Shown here: piece by piece, positions 7,271 through 56,448 of the stretch
Numbering within the stretch: the first letter of the stretch is position 1
How the letters are laid out: each line of letters starts with the position of its first letter
Assembly: GCA_963716725.1 (NCBI GenBank)
Contig: CAVQUB010000030.1
Location: 49,690 to 113,689, forward strand
Direction of reading: 5' to 3'
DNA from: an uncultured delta proteobacterium
GTDB lineage: Bacteria > Myxococcota_A > Polyangia > Polyangiales > Polyangiaceae
DNA: 64,000 nt
Position numbers and translations under genes: made by a program
Notes under the pieces: generated by a model
What the model was told of the DNA's origin: nothing
The model's input: only the letters and a program-made list of their open reading frames with translations
Databases searched by the model: none

Positions 7271-8470
<1,200 letters not shown>

Positions 8471-25831: not shown

Positions 25832-26235
25832 GCCCGAAGGACAAAGGCGATCGCGAAGCTATCCTCTCCCGACGTCGGCTCTTCGTCGCGTCGGCGATGG
25901 CGAGCATCGTGGTTGCGGAGCCGGCCTGCGACACCCTGTTCAGACCCTGTCTGGAGCCGGCGATGCGCCCCGACGCGGAGCCGACGATGTGCCTCGCCGT
26001 GCCGCTGAGTCCCCGCGACGCATCGGTGTCGATCGTCACCGACGCCGGATCGGGCGCGGACGCCGCCGCCGAGCCCTGCCTGAGCGTTGCGCGCCCGCCG
26101 CCCGACGCCGGGCGAGACGCAGCGACCGAGCCGCCCCGTCCGTGTCTGGGGCCGTCGCGTCCGAGGCCCTGCCTATCGCCGCCGCCGCCGCCGCCGCAAC
26201 CCTGCCTCAAGCCTTCGGGTGGCGGCTTCCCCTGA
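25828..26235 (+). CDS. Small exported Pro-rich protein with six xCL motifs
   Basis: MSPKDKGDREAILSRRRLFVASAMASIVVAEPAC then RPCL, TMCL, EPCL, RPCL, RPCL, QPCL; ATGA overlap with the CBS gene. Confidence 0.75.
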   Translation: MSPKDKGDREAILSRRRLFVASAMASIVVAEPACDTLFRPCLEPAMRPDAEPTMCLAVPLSPRDASVSIVTDAGSGADAAAEPCLSVARPPPDAGRDAATEPPRPCLGPSRPRPCLSPPPPPPQPCLKPSGGGFP

Positions 26236-27910
26236 TCCGACGACGGAGTCGCGCCAGCGCGAGCAGGCCGAGGCCGATCAGCGCCGCCGACGAGCCGGGA
26301 CGTCCGGGAAGCTGACAGCCACAACCGGAGTCTTCGTCGCTCTCGGCCGCCTTTTTTCCACCACCACCGCTGGCGCCGCCGCTGCTGGCGCCGCCGCTGC
26401 TGGCGCCGCCGCTCCCAGCACCGCCGCCGGCCGATCCGCCGCCGCTGCCGGAGACACCGCCGCCGCCGGACACGCCGCCGCCGCCACCGCTGGAGGAGCC
26501 TCCCACGCCGGGTCCACCGTCCGGGGGCACGACGCTGCCGTCGTGCCACTCGAAGGCGCCGACGTCCACGGCGCTGCCTTGAGGACGTGGAATGCCTTCG
26601 ATGTCGATCTTCGGAGCCTGATCGCTGGAGCCCTGGTTGATGGCGGGCGCGGTGGGGATCAGGTGCAGGTCGTTCTTGGCCGCGCTGACGAAGAACTGCG
26701 CGTAGTCCTTGAGCTCGATGTTGTGATCCTCGGTCACCCCCGCCGCGGCCAGGTTCAGATCGGTGGTCAGGTTGTTGCGCACCAAACAGCCCGTGGGCGC
26801 GGTGCCGTTCTTGTGCGCCCCGATCTGGATCCAGGGGGGGCCAGGCTTCTCCGTGTTCGGATCGATCACGGTGTTGTTCACCACCCGGCTGTTCTTGGCG
26901 CCCAAGAGCGTGATGCCGTGCCAGTGATCGGTGATGATCACGTTGTTCTCGATCACCCAGTCGACGAAGGTGCCGTCGAAGCAGCCGATGCCCTGGAGCG
27001 GGCCGCGGAGCGTCTGGTTGGGGTCTTCGTAGTTGATGATCACGTTGCCGCGCAGCATGACGCCGACCACCTGTCCGGTGCCGACCTTGCCGTCCCCGCC
27101 CACCGACCACGACTGGAAGCCGTCGTCGTGGTTGTCGTTGACGTCGTAGCAGTTCTTGACGGTGTTGTATTGGAAGGTCGTGTAGTCGCCGAGGCCGCGC
27201 AGGCCGTCGCCGGCGAAGGAGTCGACGACGTTCTTCTCGATCAGTGAGTTCTTGGCGGTGACGCTGATGCCGAAGTTCACGTTCTTGATGTCGTTGCCGC
27301 GGATGGTGATCTTGTCGCCCGCGACCTGGAACACGTTGGCCGAGAGCGTGTCCCACTCGCTGGCGGTCCAGGCCGAGACGTCGGCCTTCGATCGGAGCAC
27401 GCAGCTCTCGACCGTGATCTCGCTCACGGGCCCTTGGGAGGCGTGGTTCTCGATGGCGACCATGGTGGCCTTGGCGTAGGTCGGCGCAAAGTCCGGGCTG
27501 ATGGCCAGGCCCACCAGCTTCCAGTTGGAGCTCGACCGCACCAGCACCTTGCTCAACTTCGGCGTGTGCCCGGCCTGGGCGGCGACGGTGATGAGGCCCG
27601 TGTTGTAGTGGCTCGTGATGTCCAGTGAGCCGTGGTAGCCGTCGCGCAGCCAGAGGGTGTCTCCGGCTTTGACCACGCCGCTCGCGTTCTTGGCCACGAG
27701 CTTCGAGGCGCTGGTGTGGGGCACGACGTCCCACCCCTGAGTCTGGACCTTGCCGGTGCTGATCACCTCGTTGATGCTCTTCCACGGTTTGGCCGAGCTG
27801 CCATCGCCGGCCGCGCTGCCGTTGACCGGATCGACGTAGAAGTCGGCGGCGAGGGCGGTGGTGGAAAAGCAAACGATGGCGGCGGAGATGCCCAAGGCGA
27901 CGCTACGCAT
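26207..27910 (-). CDS. Secreted parallel beta-helix protein with MYXO-CTERM
   Basis: Signal peptide, ADFYVDP..GDGSSAKPWKSI, beta-helix repeats, D..G.PRPQGSAVDVGAFE, C-terminal GCGC-TM-RRR. Confidence 0.88.
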   Translation of the reverse strand: MRSVALGISAAIVCFSTTALAADFYVDPVNGSAAGDGSSAKPWKSINEVISTGKVQTQGWDVVPHTSASKLVAKNASGVVKAGDTLWLRDGYHGSLDITSHYNTGLITVAAQAGHTPKLSKVLVRSSSNWKLVGLAISPDFAPTYAKATMVAIENHASQGPVSEITVESCVLRSKADVSAWTASEWDTLSANVFQVAGDKITIRGNDIKNVNFGISVTAKNSLIEKNVVDSFAGDGLRGLGDYTTFQYNTVKNCYDVNDNHDDGFQSWSVGGDGKVGTGQVVGVMLRGNVIINYEDPNQTLRGPLQGIGCFDGTFVDWVIENNVIITDHWHGITLLGAKNSRVVNNTVIDPNTEKPGPPWIQIGAHKNGTAPTGCLVRNNLTTDLNLAAAGVTEDHNIELKDYAQFFVSAAKNDLHLIPTAPAINQGSSDQAPKIDIEGIPRPQGSAVDVGAFEWHDGSVVPPDGGPGVGGSSSGGGGGVSGGGGVSGSGGGSAGGGAGSGGASSGGASSGGASGGGGKKAAESDEDSGCGCQLPGRPGSSAALIGLGLLALARLRRRIRGSRHPKA

Positions 27911-33282: not shown

Positions 33283-33765
33283 ATGTCGAATCGATTCGCC
33301 TTGCTGGCGATTGCAGGCGCCATGTTTGCTTGTGGGGCTGCTCCGCCGCCGGCGTCGGCCCCCACGAGTTCGCCGCCGGCTCCGGCTTCGGCGGGCGAGC
33401 GATGCCTCGCGGAAGCGAGCGCGCCCCGCACACCGCGCAAAGATGCACCCGAGAAGATCACCGTGGCTCATGTGCTGGTGCGCCACCGGGAGCTGAAGCG
33501 TGCCGAGGGTGCGACCCGCACGCGCGCTGAGGCGTGTTTGCATGCGCAGAAGGCTCGCGAGAAGCTGCTCGCCGGTGCGGACTTTTCCGAGGTTGTCGCC
33601 GAATACTCGGACAGCGGCGATGCGACTGGCGGCAAGCTCGGCAGCGTGTCGAAGTCCGACCTCGACGAGACCTTCGCGAGCGCGGCGTTTGCCCTCGACG
33701 TTGGCGAGCTCGGTCACGTCGTGGAGACGCCCCGGGGCTTTCACGTGATCGCGCGCAGCGAGTGA
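33283..33765 (+). CDS. Parvulin/PpiC-type peptidyl-prolyl isomerase lipoprotein
   Basis: Lipobox MFAC, VAHVLVRH, FSEVVAEYSD, GGKLG, VVETPRGFHVI. Confidence 0.92.
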   Translation: MSNRFALLAIAGAMFACGAAPPPASAPTSSPPAPASAGERCLAEASAPRTPRKDAPEKITVAHVLVRHRELKRAEGATRTRAEACLHAQKAREKLLAGADFSEVVAEYSDSGDATGGKLGSVSKSDLDETFASAAFALDVGELGHVVETPRGFHVIARSE

Positions 33766-33772
33766 GCGGAGT

Positions 33773-36700
33773 TCAGAGCGCCGGCGGGAACAGCTTCGTG
33801 TCGATCTTGGGCTTGGTGAGCGAAGCGCTGACGGCCTTCCACGCGCCGCCGCCTTGTGAGAGCTCCAGGTCGCGATCCACGAGCGGGTCGTTGCAGCGGA
33901 GGATCATGGCTTCGATGGGCAGGTCCTGCGTCGGGAAGGTGGCGCTTGGGGCGTCGGCGGTCAGATCCGCCGTGGCGTGGCCGTGCACTTCGAGGAAGAG
34001 ATCGTTGGCGTTGGCGCTGCCCACCGCGGGGCCGAGCCAGGCCCAGAGCCCGTCGCCGACGGCGTCGTCCTTCTCGCGCAGGGAGATGGAGCCCGCCGGG
34101 TGATTGAGGGTGCCCAGGTAGAGCACGACGAAGTTGAATTGATCCGAGAGTTCGGTACCGCCGAGCTGATCCAAGCCCGGCACGTTGGTGATGGCGAACT
34201 GGTTGAGCCCCGTGGGATCCGTCCACTTGGTCGGCGCGGCTCCCGCCACGATGTCTTCGCCCAGGTGGGCTTCGCTGGACTTGCCCCGGGCAAACTCCCA
34301 GATCACGGCGCGGTTCGGCGCGGTCAGGCTGCTGGCTTCGCAATAAGCGTTGGCCATGGCGCCGGTCGACGAGAACGCCCGCACGATGGCGGTCAGCCCG
34401 GTCGCCGGCGCGGGCCAGGGCCCTTCGTCGAAGACCTCGGCCTTGCCGTCCTTGGTCACTCGCAGTTGTTTGGGAGGACCAGCCAGGAGCTCGACCGTGG
34501 ACGATTCTTTCTTTCCATTCTCGATGTCCGACGGCCAACCGCCTGGGACCGTGATCGTGGTGTTGACCGTCTTGCCGTCGGTCTGCACTTGCATGATGCG
34601 AAGCTGACGTTTGCGGGCCGGGCCATAGGGGTTGCGCGTCTCTGCCCAGAACAAGTTGAGGGCGTCGAACTCGAGTTGATAGGCGCGCTGCTTGCCAGCC
34701 CGCGTTTGCTTGCCATGCCAGACGGTCTTGCCGAGCGCGGCCAGAAGCTCCGCCGCGGGGCTGCCTCCACTGCCTCCGCTGCCTCCGCTGCCTCCGCTGC
34801 CGCCTCCCGTGCCGGCGAGCCCGCCGGATCCACTCGCGCCGCCCGTGCCGCCCGTGCCGCCCGAGACCACGCCGCCGCTCCCGGCGACCGCGCCTCCGCT
34901 GCCGCCAGGGCTGCCGCCGCTGCCTCCGCTGCCCCCAGCACCGCCGCCCGCCGCGCTGCTGCCGCCGTCATCTGCGCTGCACCCGGGGAGCACCAGCAAG
35001 AGAGCGAGGGCCGCGGCCCCGCGATTGCGTCGTCGGCGAGCCATCACCAGCGCGGCGAGGGCGAGCAAGGAGAGATGAGAGCCGGTGCTGCGTGCGGGGC
35101 CCGGCACCCGACAACCACAGCCACCGTCGTCGCCGCTGCTCGACGGTCCAGTCGATGAGATGCCGCCGCCCGTCGATGCCCCGCCGTTGCCCCCGCTGCC
35201 GGTTCCTCCCGAGCCGGCGCCGCCGACACCGACTGGAGGGTCCGGCAGCCCTTGGATGGTCAGGCCAGTGCATTCCACCGACGGCGTTCCGGGCAGCGGG
35301 GGGTGTGCCCGGCTCAGACTGCCGCGATGCGCCGAGTCGCTCACCAGATCTTCGAGGGCCGTGAGCTTGCAGACGCCGGCGCTGGGCGCTGGCGTGAACG
35401 CGAAGAGCGACCCGTCGTGGCACTCGACCGGAGCGTCGTCGTTCACCTGGGCCGACAGTACGGTCCCGGCCTTCCACAGGCTCATCAGTCCCTTCACGTC
35501 GAGGCCCAAGGGAAAGATGGCCTGACGCAGGTATTCGCAGACTCCCGCCTGCATCCAACTCGGTGTGTGTGAGGCGTCGAAGCTCGCCGGACCCACCAGT
35601 GGATCGGTGCCGGCAGGCAGCACGGAGCGGTGATCGGCGATGGCCGTCGCCGCGATGTTGAACGAGTGGCCGTAGAGCCCGCTGTCGAAGAGCTGATCGA
35701 GGAAGGTTCCGCTCTGTCCCACGGGCGCCGCCTGGGCGAGCCGCTGCAAGTACTCGGGCCGAATCTGGGCATACTGCGCCTTGTACTCGTCCACCAGATC
35801 CTGGACGTACTTGCTCGCTTCGTCGATGACGTAGGTCTTGATCGCGTCCTTGATGGGGGTCACGACCGGATCGAGCAATGCCGCGATCAAGCTCGGAATG
35901 GAGATATTCACGCCGACGACCTGGAGCGCGCTCTGGAGATCTTGGAGCCACTGCGGGGCCACCGCCGTGGTCAGCGCCTGGTAGTCGATGGTGGTCAGAT
36001 CATCGGCCCACTTGTTGAGGGGCTGAAATAGCTGAACGACCTTCGACTTCTCCAGGGAGAGCCCGTCGCTGCCCGGGATGAGGGGGGTGTTCAGCTCGTT
36101 GGACAGGCTCTCGACCACTTGCAGGTAAGCCGGCGTGAACTTGAACAGGTCGTCGTGAAGCTTGTCGCTGATCTTGTCGAAAGCCGAGGGCAGCGGCTGG
36201 TTGGCTGCGTCGAAGCGGGGAGCGAGCAGAGCGACGTACACCTTGTACTTCCCGTACAGGCTGGCGCAACTCGCTGAGCAGGCCGTCGTGTCGTCGTTGG
36301 TGCCGAGTTTGCCGTCGGCGCCCGGCTTCACGCCCAGCGTCTTTCCATCCGCAGTGCCTGCGTTTTGCAGGTCGGCGATGCTCTTCTCGATCAGTGTCCG
36401 GATGCCTTTTCGCTCGTCGTCCAAGAAGCGCAGGTAGCGGGGGGTCAGCGCCAACGACTCGGCCGTTGCGAGCTTCGCCTGGGGGATGAGCAGCGTCAGC
36501 AGCGCGCCAGGGTTCGATGCCTTGGTGGACTCGAATTTCTCGAGGGCGGTTCCGGCCATGACCTTCCAGAGCGGGCTCTGCTCGTTGAAGTAGGCGCGCT
36601 CGACGAAGCTCTTGGGGATGGAGTGGGCGAGCTCGGTGTTCGTGAACGACTCTGGCGACAGGTTGAATGCCCCCTCTTGCACCATGTTCTCGGCGATGAT

Positions 36701-37198
36701 GTGCCGGACCACGTTACTCCAGGTCTGCTGGCGCCCGCTGGTGACCGGCGCCAAGGTGAACGTCTCCCCGGTCATCCAGTTGACGTAGTGGTGGGCAACG
36801 GCGTCCGTCGACCCGTGCAAGAAACAACCGAGCGCGTAGGCGCGCTCCCCAGGCAAGATCGCCTCCTTGTACAAAAGCTCGCACTGCTCGTAGGGGCGCT
36901 GCCCGATGGCGTGGGAGGGGTCGGTCATGCCGGGGAAGGCCATGTTGTCCGGGCCCACTGCCCCCGCGCGGAACTCGAGGGGGTGATTGGTCAAAGCGTC
37001 TACGTCCTCTGCCTTCAGCACCACAGTGTGATTGCCGAAGCGAAGTGGAACGCCGGCGCCGCCGTGCTGGATCAGCGATTTACGCACGTCGTTGGCCAGC
37101 TTGATGTGGAAGCGGGTGGTGAACGCCGGCGCGCTCCGCGCCGCTGACAAGGTCGCGCACAGCGCCAGCGCCCCCAACCCGACGGCGAGCCTTCGCAT
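33773..37198 (-). CDS. Zn-dependent phospholipase C-like domain, internal MYXO-CTERM and second lipoprotein domain in one ORF
   Basis: Signal peptide then FTTRFH, GAVGPD, LHGSTDAVAHH, HIIAE; internal GGCGCRV..LLALAALVMARRRR followed by GAAALALLLVLPGC, Gly-rich linker and a globular domain. Confidence 0.8.
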   Translation of the reverse strand: MRRLAVGLGALALCATLSAARSAPAFTTRFHIKLANDVRKSLIQHGGAGVPLRFGNHTVVLKAEDVDALTNHPLEFRAGAVGPDNMAFPGMTDPSHAIGQRPYEQCELLYKEAILPGERAYALGCFLHGSTDAVAHHYVNWMTGETFTLAPVTSGRQQTWSNVVRHIIAENMVQEGAFNLSPESFTNTELAHSIPKSFVERAYFNEQSPLWKVMAGTALEKFESTKASNPGALLTLLIPQAKLATAESLALTPRYLRFLDDERKGIRTLIEKSIADLQNAGTADGKTLGVKPGADGKLGTNDDTTACSASCASLYGKYKVYVALLAPRFDAANQPLPSAFDKISDKLHDDLFKFTPAYLQVVESLSNELNTPLIPGSDGLSLEKSKVVQLFQPLNKWADDLTTIDYQALTTAVAPQWLQDLQSALQVVGVNISIPSLIAALLDPVVTPIKDAIKTYVIDEASKYVQDLVDEYKAQYAQIRPEYLQRLAQAAPVGQSGTFLDQLFDSGLYGHSFNIAATAIADHRSVLPAGTDPLVGPASFDASHTPSWMQAGVCEYLRQAIFPLGLDVKGLMSLWKAGTVLSAQVNDDAPVECHDGSLFAFTPAPSAGVCKLTALEDLVSDSAHRGSLSRAHPPLPGTPSVECTGLTIQGLPDPPVGVGGAGSGGTGSGGNGGASTGGGISSTGPSSSGDDGGCGCRVPGPARSTGSHLSLLALAALVMARRRRNRGAAALALLLVLPGCSADDGGSSAAGGGAGGSGGSGGSPGGSGGAVAGSGGVVSGGTGGTGGASGSGGLAGTGGGSGGSGGSGGSGGSPAAELLAALGKTVWHGKQTRAGKQRAYQLEFDALNLFWAETRNPYGPARKRQLRIMQVQTDGKTVNTTITVPGGWPSDIENGKKESSTVELLAGPPKQLRVTKDGKAEVFDEGPWPAPATGLTAIVRAFSSTGAMANAYCEASSLTAPNRAVIWEFARGKSSEAHLGEDIVAGAAPTKWTDPTGLNQFAITNVPGLDQLGGTELSDQFNFVVLYLGTLNHPAGSISLREKDDAVGDGLWAWLGPAVGSANANDLFLEVHGHATADLTADAPSATFPTQDLPIEAMILRCNDPLVDRDLELSQGGGAWKAVSASLTKPKIDTKLFPPAL

Positions 37199-37260
37199 TC
37201 GACGAGTATACACCCCTTCGGAGCCGGCCCCCCCGCTGCCGTTCGTGGTATTCGGCGGAC

Positions 37261-39030
37261 ATGACCGTGCTGGTGCTCAACGCAGGCTCGTCGTCCCTGA
37301 AGGCTCAGTTGCTCGATCCAGAGTCAGGCGCCCTGGTCGAGAAGACCATGGTCGAGCGCATCGGCGAAGCCGGGCGCACGCACGAGCTGGCCGTGACGGA
37401 GGTGCTCGAGCACCTGAAGGGACCCGCCCTCCGCGCCGTTGGCCATCGGGTCGTGCACGGGGGCGCGGACTTCACCAGCGCCGTCGTGATCGACGACGCC
37501 GTCGAGGCCGCCATCGAGCGCTGCATTCCCCTGGCTCCGCTCCACAATCCGGCCAACCTCGCCGGCATTCGCGCCGCGCGCCGGGCGCTGCCCGGGGTGC
37601 CCCACGTGGCGGTGTTCGACACGGCGTTTCACGCGCGCATGCCGCGCCGAGCCTCGACCTATGCCATCGATCAGGAGGTCGCGCTTCAGAACGGTATCCG
37701 CCGCTTCGGCTTCCACGGGACCTCCCACGCCTATGTGGCGGATCTCGCCGCTCAGACCCTGGGGCGGCCGCTGTCCGAGCTGCGGGTGATCAGCCTGCAC
37801 CTCGGCAACGGAGCCAGCGCCTGCGCCGTCGAGCACGGACATTCGACGGAGACCAGCATGGGCATGACGCCGCTCGAGGGGCTGGTGATGGGGACCCGCT
37901 CGGGTGATATCGACGCTGGAGCGGTGCTCATGCTCGTCCGCGCCGGCTGGGACGCCGAGCGGCTCGATCGGCTGCTCAACCAGGAGAGCGGTCTCAAGGG
38001 GTTGTCGGGCGTGGGCAACGACCTCAGAGACATCGAGGCGCGGGCCGAGGCCGGCGACGATCGCTGCCGGCTGGCCATCACGGTCTTCTCGCACCGCGTG
38101 CGCAAGTACATCGGGGCCTATGCTGCGGCCATGGGCGGCCTCGACGCGGTGGTATTCACGGCGGGCATCGGCGAGAACGCCGCGACGATGCGGCGGCGCG
38201 TCCTGCAGCGCTTCGATTTTCTCGGCATCGTCTTCGACGAAGACAAGAACGCCGATGCTCGCGTGACCGCACAGTCGCCGGTCGCGTTCGTGACGGCGGA
38301 GCACTCGCGTGTGGCCGCCCTGGTGGTCAAGACCAACGAAGAGCTGTCCATCGCCCGGCAGGCCGTCGCCGTGGTCCGGGAGCGCGAGCGCGCGGCGCCG
38401 GCGACGCCGATCCCCATCGCCATCAGCGCCCGGCACCTGCACCTGACAGCCGAGACCTTCGCGGCGCTGTTCGGCGCGGACGCCACGCCGACCCACTACC
38501 GGGACATTTCCCAGCCGGGCCAGTTCGCCTGCAAGGAGCTGGTGAACATCATCGGGCCGCGCGGTCGGATCGACGGCGTACGGCTCCTCGGCCCGCTGCG
38601 ACGGTCGAACCAAGTCGAGGTCTCACGGACCGACGAGTTCAAGCTCGGGGTCGATGCGCCGATCCGCGATTCGGGCAAGACCGAAGGCTCCGCGCCCATC
38701 GTGATCGAGGGGCCCAAGGGCAGCGTCAACCTCGCGGAGGGCCTGATCTGCGCCAAGCGGCACATCCACATGGCGCCGGCAGATGCCGAACGCTTTGCTG
38801 TGCGCGACGGCGACGAGGTGGAGGTGGCGATCACCAACGGGCCACGCGACCTGGTCTTTGGCGACGTGCTCGTGCGAGTGAGCCCCAAGTACAAGCTCGA
38901 GATGCACATCGACACCGACGAGGGCAACGCGGCAGAGCTGAACCCGGACGCGGTCGGCGAGCTCACGTACACGGACGTCCTCGGCGCCCAGGCCGTGCTG
39001 AGCACCCGACGCGTGCGACTGCCGGGTTGA
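37261..39030 (+). CDS. ackA: Acetate kinase fused to PduL-type phosphotransacylase
   Basis: AckA: VLNAGSSSLK, GHRVVHGG, APLHNP, FDTAFH, GFHGTSH, HLGNGAS, TNEE. PduL from about 38404: ISARHLHL, QVEVSRTD, AKRHIHM, EMHIDTDEGNA. Confidence 0.93.
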   Translation: MTVLVLNAGSSSLKAQLLDPESGALVEKTMVERIGEAGRTHELAVTEVLEHLKGPALRAVGHRVVHGGADFTSAVVIDDAVEAAIERCIPLAPLHNPANLAGIRAARRALPGVPHVAVFDTAFHARMPRRASTYAIDQEVALQNGIRRFGFHGTSHAYVADLAAQTLGRPLSELRVISLHLGNGASACAVEHGHSTETSMGMTPLEGLVMGTRSGDIDAGAVLMLVRAGWDAERLDRLLNQESGLKGLSGVGNDLRDIEARAEAGDDRCRLAITVFSHRVRKYIGAYAAAMGGLDAVVFTAGIGENAATMRRRVLQRFDFLGIVFDEDKNADARVTAQSPVAFVTAEHSRVAALVVKTNEELSIARQAVAVVRERERAAPATPIPIAISARHLHLTAETFAALFGADATPTHYRDISQPGQFACKELVNIIGPRGRIDGVRLLGPLRRSNQVEVSRTDEFKLGVDAPIRDSGKTEGSAPIVIEGPKGSVNLAEGLICAKRHIHMAPADAERFAVRDGDEVEVAITNGPRDLVFGDVLVRVSPKYKLEMHIDTDEGNAAELNPDAVGELTYTDVLGAQAVLSTRRVRLPG

Positions 39031-53847: not shown

Positions 53848-54856
53848 ATGAGACTGAATCGAAACTGGTGGATCGTCTTGGGCCCGGTGACGGTGCTCGC
53901 GGCCTGTGCGGCGACGCGCGAATCCGAGCCCGTCGAGCAAGAGAATCTCGCGGGTCGAAGCCGCGACGGTGCTCGCAGAGCGCTTCGAGCGGACCATTGC
54001 CTGGGGCCACGGCCCGAGCGAGCTCCGCCGCTCGGAAAAAGTCGCGCAGAGCGTCGTTTACGGCCCCAACGCCGTCGCGCTGGCCGCCGACGGCCGGACA
54101 CTGGTGCTCGACCGACTCGCCGGACGCGTGGTGTCCGTCGACGCCGCGTCACCGCTGCGCACCGTCGCGTCCGTCGCGGTGGACTCGGAGGATCTCGCGG
54201 CGGGCAGCGACGGCACGTGGCTCGCGTTCAGCCCGGTACGAGCCGAGGCCGCGGTCTTCGACGCGCAGGGCAAGAGCGTCGGGACCATCGCTGTCCCGCG
54301 AACGCTCCGCGACGCGGTCGGCTTCGACTTTGGACCGTCGCGACGGATCCGGGTGCGGACCGGCTTGCAGGAGGTCATCGAGATCGGTAGCCCGGCGGCG
54401 CCGCTGGCGCTCGACGTGGTCATGCAGAGCAAGCGCGAAGGCGCGCTTCAACTCGCCGACGGACGCGGCGTCGCGGTGCAGGCGACGAAGGCCGGGGTCT
54501 CCCTGCTCTTGCTGTCCCAGCCCGCAGGCGACGACACCCGCAGCGAGACGCAGAAGGTCATCGCACTGCCAGGAGCCGCCGCGGCCGGGCGGGTCGTCGG
54601 CGCCCACGCCAACGTGGTGTGCGTGCGCACCGAGTCGGTCAGTTCGAAGCCGGCCATCTCCGTCGGCCGCCGCGCGGTTTGTGTGAACGTCGATTCGAGC
54701 GCGGTCGTGTTCGACGAAGCGTTGCCGGCACCGGGGCTCTACGTCCCCCGCACCGACGTCGCGTTCAACGCGGGCCGCCTCGCCTACATTCGACCCACCG
54801 ACCAGGGCCTCACCGTGACCAGCGTCCAGGTGGTGGGAAAGGCGGTGACGCCATGA
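53848..54856 (+). pseudogene. Frameshifted lipoprotein, beta-propeller-like (pseudogene or sequencing error)
   Basis: MRLNRNWWIVLGPVTVLAAC in one frame, body (GPNAVALAADGRTLVLDRLAGRV...) in the next; removing one A at 53944-53945 joins them. Confidence 0.7.
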
Positions 54857-56448
54857 GCCGCCGCCTCTTCACCGCAGCCGTCTTGGGTCTCGGGCTCGCC
54901 GCGGCGACCAGCGCGTCGGCCGTCACCCGCACCGAGGTGCTGATCAAGGCCAAGGCCTTTGCGTACCACCCGTGGACCGCGACCAGCGCCAACACGACGG
55001 CGTCGTGCAAGGCGGCGTACAAGAGCATCTATTCGCCCGGAGACTTCATGGGTCTGCCCTACGACTGGGGCGGGTACATGTCCCTGTTCCAGTTCGATCA
55101 GCAGATCGCCCAGGGTTACGGCGCGGGCTCGTATCCGGAGGACGGCATCTTGAGCTGTACCTCGGGCGTCGACTGCTCGGGCTTCGTCAGCCAGATCTGG
55201 AGCGCGGGGCACACCACGACCTCCGGCGTGGACCAGATCTCCTCGACCATCAGCAAGGCTCAGATGCTGACCGGCGACATCTTCAACGACGCCGGCAACC
55301 ACATGGCCATGTTCAGCCACCTGCTTGGCAGTGGCGAGCCCGCGCTCTACGAGTCGGTGTTTTACAACGTGCACTACAGCATGCCGGGTTGGTCGTGGCT
55401 GAATGGCTACATTCCCCGCCGCTACGCGAACATCACGGGCACCACGGCGGACGACCCCTCGGGCACCACCCAGAAGCCCATCGCCATCACCAGCTTTCCT
55501 TTCGTCGACTCGCGCAACACGGCGCAGTCGTCCAGCGACGTGCTCGACGGCTGCGGGGCCGACCCCAGCACGTCGGAGTCGGGTCCCGAGTACATCTATC
55601 AGATCACGCTCACCCAGCCGGGAACGCTCACGGTGAGCGTTCAGGACGACGTGGGCGTCGACATCGACGTTCACCTCTACACGTCCATGAACACCAACGA
55701 CTGTGTGGCGCGTCACGACACCAGCTTCAGCAAGAACGTCGACTGTGGCACCTACTACGTGGTCGCCGACACGTTCTCGAAGTCGGGAACAGCGCTCAGC
55801 GGGGCCTACACGCTCACGGTCAACTTCACGCCGAGCAGTGGACAGGCCTGCGGGGCCGGGCCGAAGAAGTACGGTTTCAAGGGCGGCCCCGGCTCGGCCT
55901 GCGCCTACCCGGGAAACAAGAACTTGCCGTTCTGCAACCCGAACCTCGGCGTCGACACCTGCCTCTACACCTCGACCTCGAGCTTCTGCAGCGCCCCCTG
56001 CGTCAGCGCGGCCGACTGCGGCAGCTTCCCCGGCGGTTGCTGCAGCGACATCGGTAATGGACAGAAGTACTGCCTCGCCGCGTCCATGTGCGGCGCGCAG
56101 AAGCCCGACTCGGGCGTGGCGCCAAAGCCCGACGCCGGCGGCGATCCGGCGGACGCGAGCGCCGGCGGGGCGAGCGGCGCAGGTGGCGGCGCGGGAGCTG
56201 GCTTCGGCGGCGTAGCGGGCAGCGCGGGCAGCGCGGGCAGCGCGTCCGGCGGCTCACCGAACGTTGGAGGCGGGACGTCGAGCGGAGGTGGCCCCGTCGG
56301 CTCCGGCGGTGGTCTGGCGGCGGGCCCGGGCTCGGGCAGCGACTCGGGGTGCAGCGCCACAGGACGCGCAGCAGGGCGTTCGTGGTGGCTGCTCGCCGCA
56401 GCGATGGTCCTCGCGCTGAGGCGTCGCGGCGGGAACTCGCAACGCTGA
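54853..56448 (+). CDS. Secreted NlpC/P60-like hydrolase with PPC-like domain and MYXO-CTERM
   Basis: Signal peptide, GLPYDWGG, GVDCSGFVS, GDIF..GNHMAMF; DIDVHLY..GTYYVVAD; C-terminal SGCSA..WWLLAAAMVLALRRR; ATGA overlap with the upstream gene. Confidence 0.82.
   Translation: MSRRLFTAAVLGLGLAAATSASAVTRTEVLIKAKAFAYHPWTATSANTTASCKAAYKSIYSPGDFMGLPYDWGGYMSLFQFDQQIAQGYGAGSYPEDGILSCTSGVDCSGFVSQIWSAGHTTTSGVDQISSTISKAQMLTGDIFNDAGNHMAMFSHLLGSGEPALYESVFYNVHYSMPGWSWLNGYIPRRYANITGTTADDPSGTTQKPIAITSFPFVDSRNTAQSSSDVLDGCGADPSTSESGPEYIYQITLTQPGTLTVSVQDDVGVDIDVHLYTSMNTNDCVARHDTSFSKNVDCGTYYVVADTFSKSGTALSGAYTLTVNFTPSSGQACGAGPKKYGFKGGPGSACAYPGNKNLPFCNPNLGVDTCLYTSTSSFCSAPCVSAADCGSFPGGCCSDIGNGQKYCLAASMCGAQKPDSGVAPKPDAGGDPADASAGGASGAGGGAGAGFGGVAGSAGSAGSASGGSPNVGGGTSSGGGPVGSGGGLAAGPGSGSDSGCSATGRAAGRSWWLLAAAMVLALRRRGGNSQR

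Follow-up and report, generated by a model that had tools for sequence, protein, structure and literature searches.

The sequence analyzed here, referred to as the window, is a stretch of 64,000 nucleotides from contig CAVQUB010000030.1 (positions 49,690 to 113,689 of the forward strand; GenBank assembly GCA_963716725.1) of an uncultured delta proteobacterium, placed by GTDB in the family Polyangiaceae of Myxococcota_A. The minus-strand open reading frame (ORF) 33773..37213 has 1146 codons open without a stop; it starts with GTG, and the ATG at 37198, which a first-pass annotation of this DNA had taken as the end of the feature, is codon 6. Coordinates and open frame agreed in every respect with that annotation. 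The encoded protein consists of an N domain and a C domain, joined by a junction in which a MYXO-CTERM sorting tag directly abuts a lipoprotein-type signal (Table 1). The homologues nearest to it, among the matches listed, have 1134-1156 residues and are 71-80% identical across the N half, and the mature end AxAFSTRxHI that follows the predicted N-terminal export signal is conserved in the family consensus.

Table 1. Parts of the fused gene and of its predicted product
Feature	Residues	Positions	Strand	Basis
Whole ORF	1146 plus stop	33773..37213	-	Read from sequence; closest homologues comparable
N-terminal export signal, ...SAARSAPA/F	1-27	37132..37213	-	Predicted from sequence reading and family consensus
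N domain, all-alpha	28-660	35234..37131	-	AlphaFold2 (AF2) model; PF00882 similarity
Gly/Ser-rich linker 1	661-696	35126..35233	-	Sequence reading
Internal MYXO-CTERM	696-729	35027..35128	-	TIGR03901 profile match
Internal lipoprotein-type signal, Cys745 at 34979-34981		34979..35038	-	Sequence reading; relaxed lipobox pattern
Gly/Ser-rich linker 2	746-814	34772..34978	-	Sequence reading
C domain, beta-rich, partly PA14-like	815-1146 (332 residues)	33776..34771	-	AF2 model; Foldseek

RESULTS

The internal MYXO-CTERM and the adjacent lipoprotein-type signal

The TIGR03901 profile (MYXO-CTERM, NCBIfam; curated cut-off 20 bits) matched residues 696-729 with 26.4 bits when the whole protein was searched, and with 30 bits when the junction segment alone was used. 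The match spans positions 1-33 of the 34 in the profile, and its end coincides exactly with that of RRRR (R729, base 35027). The tripartite build of the tag is formed by the GGCGC motif (C699, C701), the helix HLSLLALAALVMA and the RRRR cluster, and conservation in the family alignment reaches at least 90% at both C699 and C701. As had been claimed in the first-pass annotation, no stop codon follows the tag, which is not C-terminal in this protein because 417 residues lie beyond R729.

Directly after the MYXO-CTERM comes NRGAAALALLLVLPGC (Cys745), followed by linker 2 and the 332-residue C domain; the Gly/Ser-rich linkers that had been noticed earlier indeed lie on both sides of the junction. 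The lipoprotein-type signal that had been described from the ATG at 35044-35042 (M724) to Cys745 (34981-34979) could be read as reported, including MARRRRNRGAAALALLLVLPGC. Its n-region, RRRRNR, is common to the MYXO-CTERM tag, and its h-region, GAAALALLLVLPG, contains 13 uncharged residues (median 14 in relatives), which corresponds to the lipoprotein-signal build of a positive n-region and an uncharged h-region of about 7-22 residues. The lipobox reads L-P-G-C. With its Cys at residue 745, this signal is not N-terminal in the window protein, while it is N-terminal in ten relatives encoded by two separate genes, which are described below.

The conservation of the junction was analyzed in 45 segments, which were those of the window and of 44 loci with the same fused organization. 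A TIGR03901 match at or above the cut-off was found in 33 of them, and one at E≤0.01 in 35, while a lipobox-like Cys followed the basic cluster, at a median distance of 17 residues, in 41 segments according to a relaxed pattern. Among the four segments missed by this pattern, those of loci L043 and L067 show both elements on reading, that of L028 contains LQPGC, and that of L066 is without the second hydrophobic segment. The Arg-rich loop between both hydrophobic segments has a median length of 6 residues, including the basic cluster. Hence, the junction has the predicted anatomy of a two-helix hairpin with one common Arg-rich loop, and this membrane hairpin, which was part of the original suggestion, is conserved in the family as far as it can be read from the sequences.

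The internal tag and lipobox are kept in relatives down to about 37-45% identity. When 991,221 bases, covering both strands of the window and of 80 loci of the family, were scanned with the junction pattern, all 42 matches were at the family locus, and no other family with the same junction was found in these 991 kb of window and locus flanks. The conservation in distant relatives and the restriction of the pattern to the family locus indicate that the junction is more than a chance arrangement.

Fused, split and N-only loci

A homologue search with the N half (residues 1-729) gave 187 matches, of which 120 were listed. Among these 120, an internal Cys motif, helix and Arg cluster followed by a lipobox and by more than 150 further residues was recognized by pattern in 91 proteins and on reading in 6 more; the rest were 1 protein truncated after the lipobox, 17 ending just past the Arg cluster and 5 fragments. 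For a survey at the level of loci, one genome per species was taken, which gave 80 loci, and profile hidden Markov models of the N and C domains were run on stop-to-stop ORFs. Nearly all of these loci come from metagenome-assembled Polyangia labelled Polyangiaceae, Nannocystaceae or Sandaracinaceae, and one, L025, from an isolate, Paraliomyxa miuraensis SMH-27-4. The two halves were fused at the junction in 50 loci (48 together with L037 and L075, which have a frameshift further along the linker) and were encoded by two separate genes in 10. Six loci have the N gene only, with a terminal tag and with no C domain found in the downstream flank, and 14 were not classifiable because of contig ends. 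Both halves are thus co-encoded, either fused or adjacent, in 60 of the 66 classifiable loci, and fused forms are present in clades labelled with each of the three family names.

These counts bear on the possibility that the fusion is confined to this genome, as an error of sequencing or assembly or through the recent loss of a stop codon. Split forms do occur among fairly close relatives (L004, L007, L010), and the split loci L017, L044 and L050 are just one in-frame stop and a spacer of about 20 codons away from the fused state, which speaks for such an accident. On the other hand, the three nearest relatives (74-82% identity) are all fused, as is the gene of the cultured P. miuraensis SMH-27-4. 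The comparative data, with 50 of 80 independent loci and 97 of the 120 listed matches in the fused form, refute an accident private to one genome, which the first-pass annotation had kept in view, and we give it next to no credence.

Four otherwise fused genes (L041, L049, L037 and L075) are interrupted by frameshifts, located in one of the two domains or in the Gly-rich linker, which probably reflect misassembly of low-complexity, GC-rich sequence or else decay of the copies. Four loci labelled Proteobacteria or Rhodobacterales (L065, L066, L076 and L055) group inside the Myxococcota family in the tree, so that their bin labels may be wrong.

Homologues of each half also exist as separate genes, which was one of the checks proposed at the outset. 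In the 10 split loci the upstream N gene stops 0-11 residues past the Arg cluster, and the downstream C gene opens with an ordinary lipoprotein signal of the form M-K/R...AC/GC, for example MKRLCVLAVSVLLAAC. The same lipoprotein-type start is present in stand-alone C-half proteins of 338-447 residues from protein collections, and the mature start is alike in the split and fused forms, usually C-G/S-x-D-D. As the signals of the fused form thus recur in split loci, one at the end of the N half and one at the start of the C half, the same two mature products are to be expected in both states.

N-domain sequences (76 rows) were used for a maximum-likelihood tree, built by a quick search, on which the distribution of the two states was followed. 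All large clades contain fused forms, and the state changed between fused and split at least four times, as counted over 60 rows, which suggests that the two states are functionally interchangeable. The window clade, which consists of four fused genes, is sister to a trio of split genes with support 99; as to the direction of change at this point, a history with two splits is as parsimonious as one with a single split and a single re-fusion. The distant relatives L078-L080 (29-34% identity) have the N gene alone.

Start codons at the junction

Since the segment MARRRRNRG...PGC, read from the ATG at 35044, looks like a complete lipoprotein signal, the first-pass annotation had proposed internal initiation as one way to obtain two proteins, with the C half made mainly from its own start and read-through from upstream being incidental. 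Of the three closest relatives, L001 and L003 have no Met at the position encoded at 35044, and in L002 a Met is located one residue earlier. In a scan of 39 fused junctions, from 8 codons before the Arg cluster to 6 codons before the lipobox, 13 had no in-frame ATG, GTG or TTG at all, ATG was found in just 6, and a candidate start with a Shine-Dalgarno-like motif in 1. The missing Shine-Dalgarno-like motif at 35044 is in itself not telling, because 6 of the 10 true starts in split loci are also without one, an observation which leaves some room for initiation at the junction. However, nothing in the frame terminates translation between the two halves, so that every ribosome completing the N half must run on into the C half. 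These data show that internal initiation is not a conserved route, and for the window gene we regard it as very improbable.

The N domain

The AF2 model of the N domain is all-alpha, with a mean predicted local distance difference test score (pLDDT) of 89.6. The first-pass annotation had called this region similar to zinc-dependent phospholipase C. In its favor, the profile PF00882 (Zn_dep_PLPC) matched the window N domain at residues about 57-188, while, on the other side, the score of 17 bits (E 0.0057) is below the gathering score of 26.8, and the whole protein had no Pfam match at E≤1. The same profile matched 47 of 55 relatives at E≤0.01 (best E 2.5e-7), 29 of 30 named matches in an Atlas search of the N domain were PF00882 clusters, and several homologues carry the name of a Zn-dependent phospholipase C at NCBI. 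Seven residues, H101, H133, D137, H141, H142, H171 and E175, do not vary among 37 sequences, and this His/Asp/Glu set may correspond to the known zinc ligands of PF00882. No match at E≤0.001 was obtained when the complete N-domain model was compared with PDB structures by Foldseek, and sequence searches of PDB with a profile of the whole family and with one of the first 200 residues gave best E values of 0.16 and 0.39, both for unrelated proteins. Hence, the first 200 or so residues of the N domain appear to be distantly phospholipase C-like, and this weak likeness is clearer in the relatives than in the window protein. The likeness to PF00882 thus consists of weak profile matches and the invariant His/Asp/Glu residues, while the differences are the subthreshold score in the window, the embedding in an all-alpha protein of 630 residues, and the lack of a sequence or fold match in PDB.

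The C domain

The 332-residue C domain was modeled by AF2 with a mean pLDDT of 94.6 and a predicted template modeling score of 0.91, which agrees with the earlier expectation that the C-terminal region is folded. The Foldseek search against PDB returned PA14 domains of the yeast Flo/Epa adhesins and of a Marinomonas RTX adhesin, with probability 1.00, E values from 3.7e-6 to 1e-4, and template modeling (TM) scores of 0.45-0.65 when normalized to the target. The match covers only part of the domain, the TM score normalized to the query being 0.35-0.41. At the sequence level no Pfam family matched the window C domain at E≤0.1, the PA14 model matched in none of 53 relatives, where stray family matches had E≥0.028, and an Atlas search with the C domain gave no usable match. 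The C domain therefore resembles PA14 domains in fold, with partial coverage and without a match to the sequence family, and the model points to a partly PA14-like protein of putative sugar-binding character.

When 1.84 billion representative clusters were searched with the C domain, 75 matched. Of 34 full-length matches at E≤1e-75, 18 were proteins of 1010-1193 residues, 10 were the stand-alone proteins of 338-447 residues mentioned above, and the remaining 6, of 584-927 residues, still have a visible junction. To judge by these matches, the C domain is almost restricted to this family.

Neighboring genes and other sorting tags

Apart from the gene and the shadow ORFs antisense to it, an all-against-all BLAST of flanking ORFs from the 80 loci and the window revealed no conserved partner; one cluster of flanking ORFs, present in 16 loci, consists of Ser/Thr kinases. 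In the window the gene lies between two plus-strand ORFs, neither of which is conserved beside it in other loci. Reading of the translations suggests that the upstream one, 37261..39030 (589 residues), is acetate-kinase-like with an extra C-terminal domain, and that the downstream one, 33283..33765 (160 residues), is lipoprotein-like with a PpiC-type rotamase region.

Two other MYXO-CTERM tags, both terminal, had been reported in the window, and one of them was confirmed by the profile. In the protein of the minus-strand ORF 26207..27910 (567 residues) a choice-of-anchor Q domain is combined with a MYXO-CTERM at the terminus (TIGR03901, residues 527-558, 26.1 bits), which indicates that this genome uses the sorting system. 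The plus-strand ORF 54619..56448 (609 residues) ends with GCSATGRAAGRSWWLLAAAMVLALRRRGGNSQR, a Cys-hydrophobic-RRR tail that is MYXO-CTERM-like by pattern only, as it has no NCBIfam (TIGR03901) match at E≤0.001.

A search of a protein collection with the junction region gave 6 matches at E≤10, one of which, P0205, has the internal layout. This unrelated FG-GAP-repeat protein of 1475 residues has a TIGR03901 match at residues 700-733 (21.7 bits), followed by ...RRRRSRWATPAGILAAVGC, and a second GCGC motif with a hydrophobic stretch at residues 1430-1457, near its C-terminus. Though it is a single sequence on one contig, it hints that the junction could be a general, reusable way for Myxococcota to fuse neighboring envelope genes.

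DISCUSSION

The anatomy of the junction, its conservation and the existence of split forms were observed directly in the sequences. They suggest that one gene encodes the precursor of two lipid-anchored proteins, a distantly Zn-phospholipase C-like N half and a PA14-like lipoprotein, and we consider this conclusion rather probable. Processing on both sides of the hairpin is the most economical explanation, because the junction is conserved, it has the anatomy of a hairpin, and the halves exist as separate genes with signals at their own termini. A cut on both legs is also the simplest reading given that the fused and split states interconvert and that both Cys positions are conserved in the fused forms.

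The route by which such a precursor could be resolved can be outlined in several steps. The N-terminal signal would export the 630-residue N domain, until the MYXO-CTERM helix, inserted in the out-to-in direction, halts the transfer, leaving RRRR in the cytoplasm. The next hydrophobic segment, oriented in to out, would borrow the same Arg cluster as its n-region and re-insert as a lipoprotein signal, and in this way linker 2 and the PA14-like C domain would be exported. After modification of the Cys, the myxosortase MrtX would cut at the GCGC side, which would free the N domain, lipid-anchored at its C-terminus, for type II secretion to the cell surface. The action of Lgt and LspA at Cys745 would release the C domain, lipidated at its N-terminus, and a hairpin peptide of about 40 residues would be left over. 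Such a conserved hairpin polyprotein, in which one Sec-inserted precursor is resolved by myxosortase and by Lgt/LspA on the two hairpin legs into two differently lipidated proteins, made 1:1 and passed to type II secretion and to Lol, is proposed more tentatively than the two products themselves, as its chances seem to us slightly less than even.

Several observations weigh against this proposal. The lipobox of the window, L-P-G-C, has an atypical Pro at -2; strict lipoboxes follow the pattern [LVI][ASTVI][GAS]C, which the window sequence does not fit, and which just 22 of the 41 junctions positive by the relaxed pattern match, while 19 fail it. Ten of the 45 junction segments have no TIGR03901 match at E≤0.01. 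In L066 (about 7936-8229), P0152 and P0159 a single hydrophobic segment comes after the GCGC motif, with a lipobox-like Cys and then K/R at its end (e.g. ...LLALVSC-KRS), and there is no second helix before the C domain, so that the hairpin model leaves the topology of these three proteins unexplained. The six loci with the N gene alone indicate that the C half is not obligatory. The two products could also end up apart from each other: ordinary lipoproteins travel via Lol, and given the different routes of type II secretion and Lol the two may be located on opposite sides of the outer membrane, a prospect that weakens the idea of an enzyme and its partner. Finally, for every member of the family it is from the sequence that we infer the topology, the two cleavages, the eventual location of each product and a partnership of the two, if any.

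The atypical lipobox of the window, the lipoboxes failing the strict pattern and the junctions without a profile match would all fit a protein that is not processed. The hairpin would then anchor one uncut polypeptide in the inner membrane, the two domains would both be periplasmic, and what resembles a tag and a lipobox would be look-alikes. It is difficult to reconcile this explanation with the conservation of C699 and C701 and of the lipobox Cys, or with the split relatives, in which these signals are located at genuine protein ends and so constitute standard substrates. Moreover, at least four interconversions would be hard if one state were tethered in the inner membrane, while the other was sorted to the outer membrane or surface. 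For these reasons we find an unprocessed protein unlikely.

A variant of the precursor model, with the same processing, is that the C-half lipoprotein serves for self-protection, as an inhibitor or chaperone at the periplasmic face, shielding the membranes of the producer from the phospholipase-like N domain during its transit, and not as a lectin partner at the surface. In other systems, lipoprotein immunity proteins accompany phospholipase effectors, and it would fit such a role that the halves are strictly co-encoded in 60 of 66 classifiable loci, with the C domain found essentially nowhere else. The fold match of the C domain is to the sugar-binding PA14 domain rather than to known inhibitors, and the N gene is without a C half in 6 loci, which makes self-protection an improbable idea.

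Each element of the precursor proposed here has counterparts in known systems. MrtX cleaves MYXO-CTERM in a Cys-dependent manner, and the products reach the surface via the type II system, according to a recent study (Guo, Haft and Wall, mBio 2025; PMC11980579), in which TraA was expressed in Escherichia coli with and without MrtX. The window protein shares with this system the tripartite tag of Cys motif, helix and Arg cluster, which scores above the TIGR03901 cut-off. That paper also states that an internal MYXO-CTERM is found "in rare cases", with a gene-fusion origin, for example in MXAN_5598, which joins an adhesin to an outer-membrane beta-barrel/OmpA part, and proposes processing of the internal tag; work cited there indicates that sorting tags are able to act mid-protein (PMC11980579). 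The window protein resembles MXAN_5598 in the internal position of the tag and in the proposed origin by gene fusion. It differs in that the tag of the window family is immediately followed by a lipoprotein signal, with one Arg loop common to both, an arrangement from which a second, lipid-dependent cleavage is predicted, and in that the layout predominates in a whole family, in many species, instead of being a single rare case. With lipoprotein signals processed by Lgt and LspA the internal signal shares the positive n-region, the uncharged h-region and the Cys after a small residue, and the split relatives use it N-terminally; it differs in lying 720 residues into the protein and, in the window, in the Pro at -2. 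A precedent for recognition of a C-terminal-type tag in the middle of a protein comes from Haloferax, where a substrate processed by ArtA reportedly has a non-terminal tripartite tag (Abdul Halim et al. 2017, J Bacteriol); in that case the organism is an archaeon, the tag is of the PGF-CTERM type and the enzyme is a different one.

The NCBIfam model NF058595, named "lipo-invert putative C-terminal anchoring domain" (invert_tail; cut-off 37 bits), matched 12 of the 45 junction segments weakly, with 16-24 bits (e.g. L022 and L064). These matches in relatives, all subthreshold, run from the helix through the lipobox, while the window had no match at E≤0.01. A curator may thus have already seen something related, and our literature search found no paper describing this lipo-invert model. 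The search also returned no paper on an internal lipobox or internal lipoprotein signal, and we found no printed account of a sorting tag placed immediately before a lipoprotein signal, with one loop in common, or of the window protein family; the Haft preprint (10.1101/2023.06.07.544157) does not mention internal tags, fusion or a polyprotein. The first-pass annotation regarded the arrangement as a candidate for an undescribed system, which was overstated with respect to the internal MYXO-CTERM and its fusion origin, already in print (PMC11980579). What appears to be new, by our literature search, is the abutment to a lipoprotein signal, the internal lipobox and the family itself.

If the precursor is cut as proposed, it would represent a natural and widespread example of a lipoprotein signal that functions although hundreds of residues precede it, and of a myxosortase acting on a non-terminal tag, with one gene giving rise to two lipid-anchored envelope proteins. 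The fused and split versions of the same pair in related species are natural controls, which makes MYXO-CTERM recognition and lipidation directly testable. The arrangement also matters for annotation, as tools that look for sorting tags at protein termini only will call such genes "hypothetical" or misplace them.

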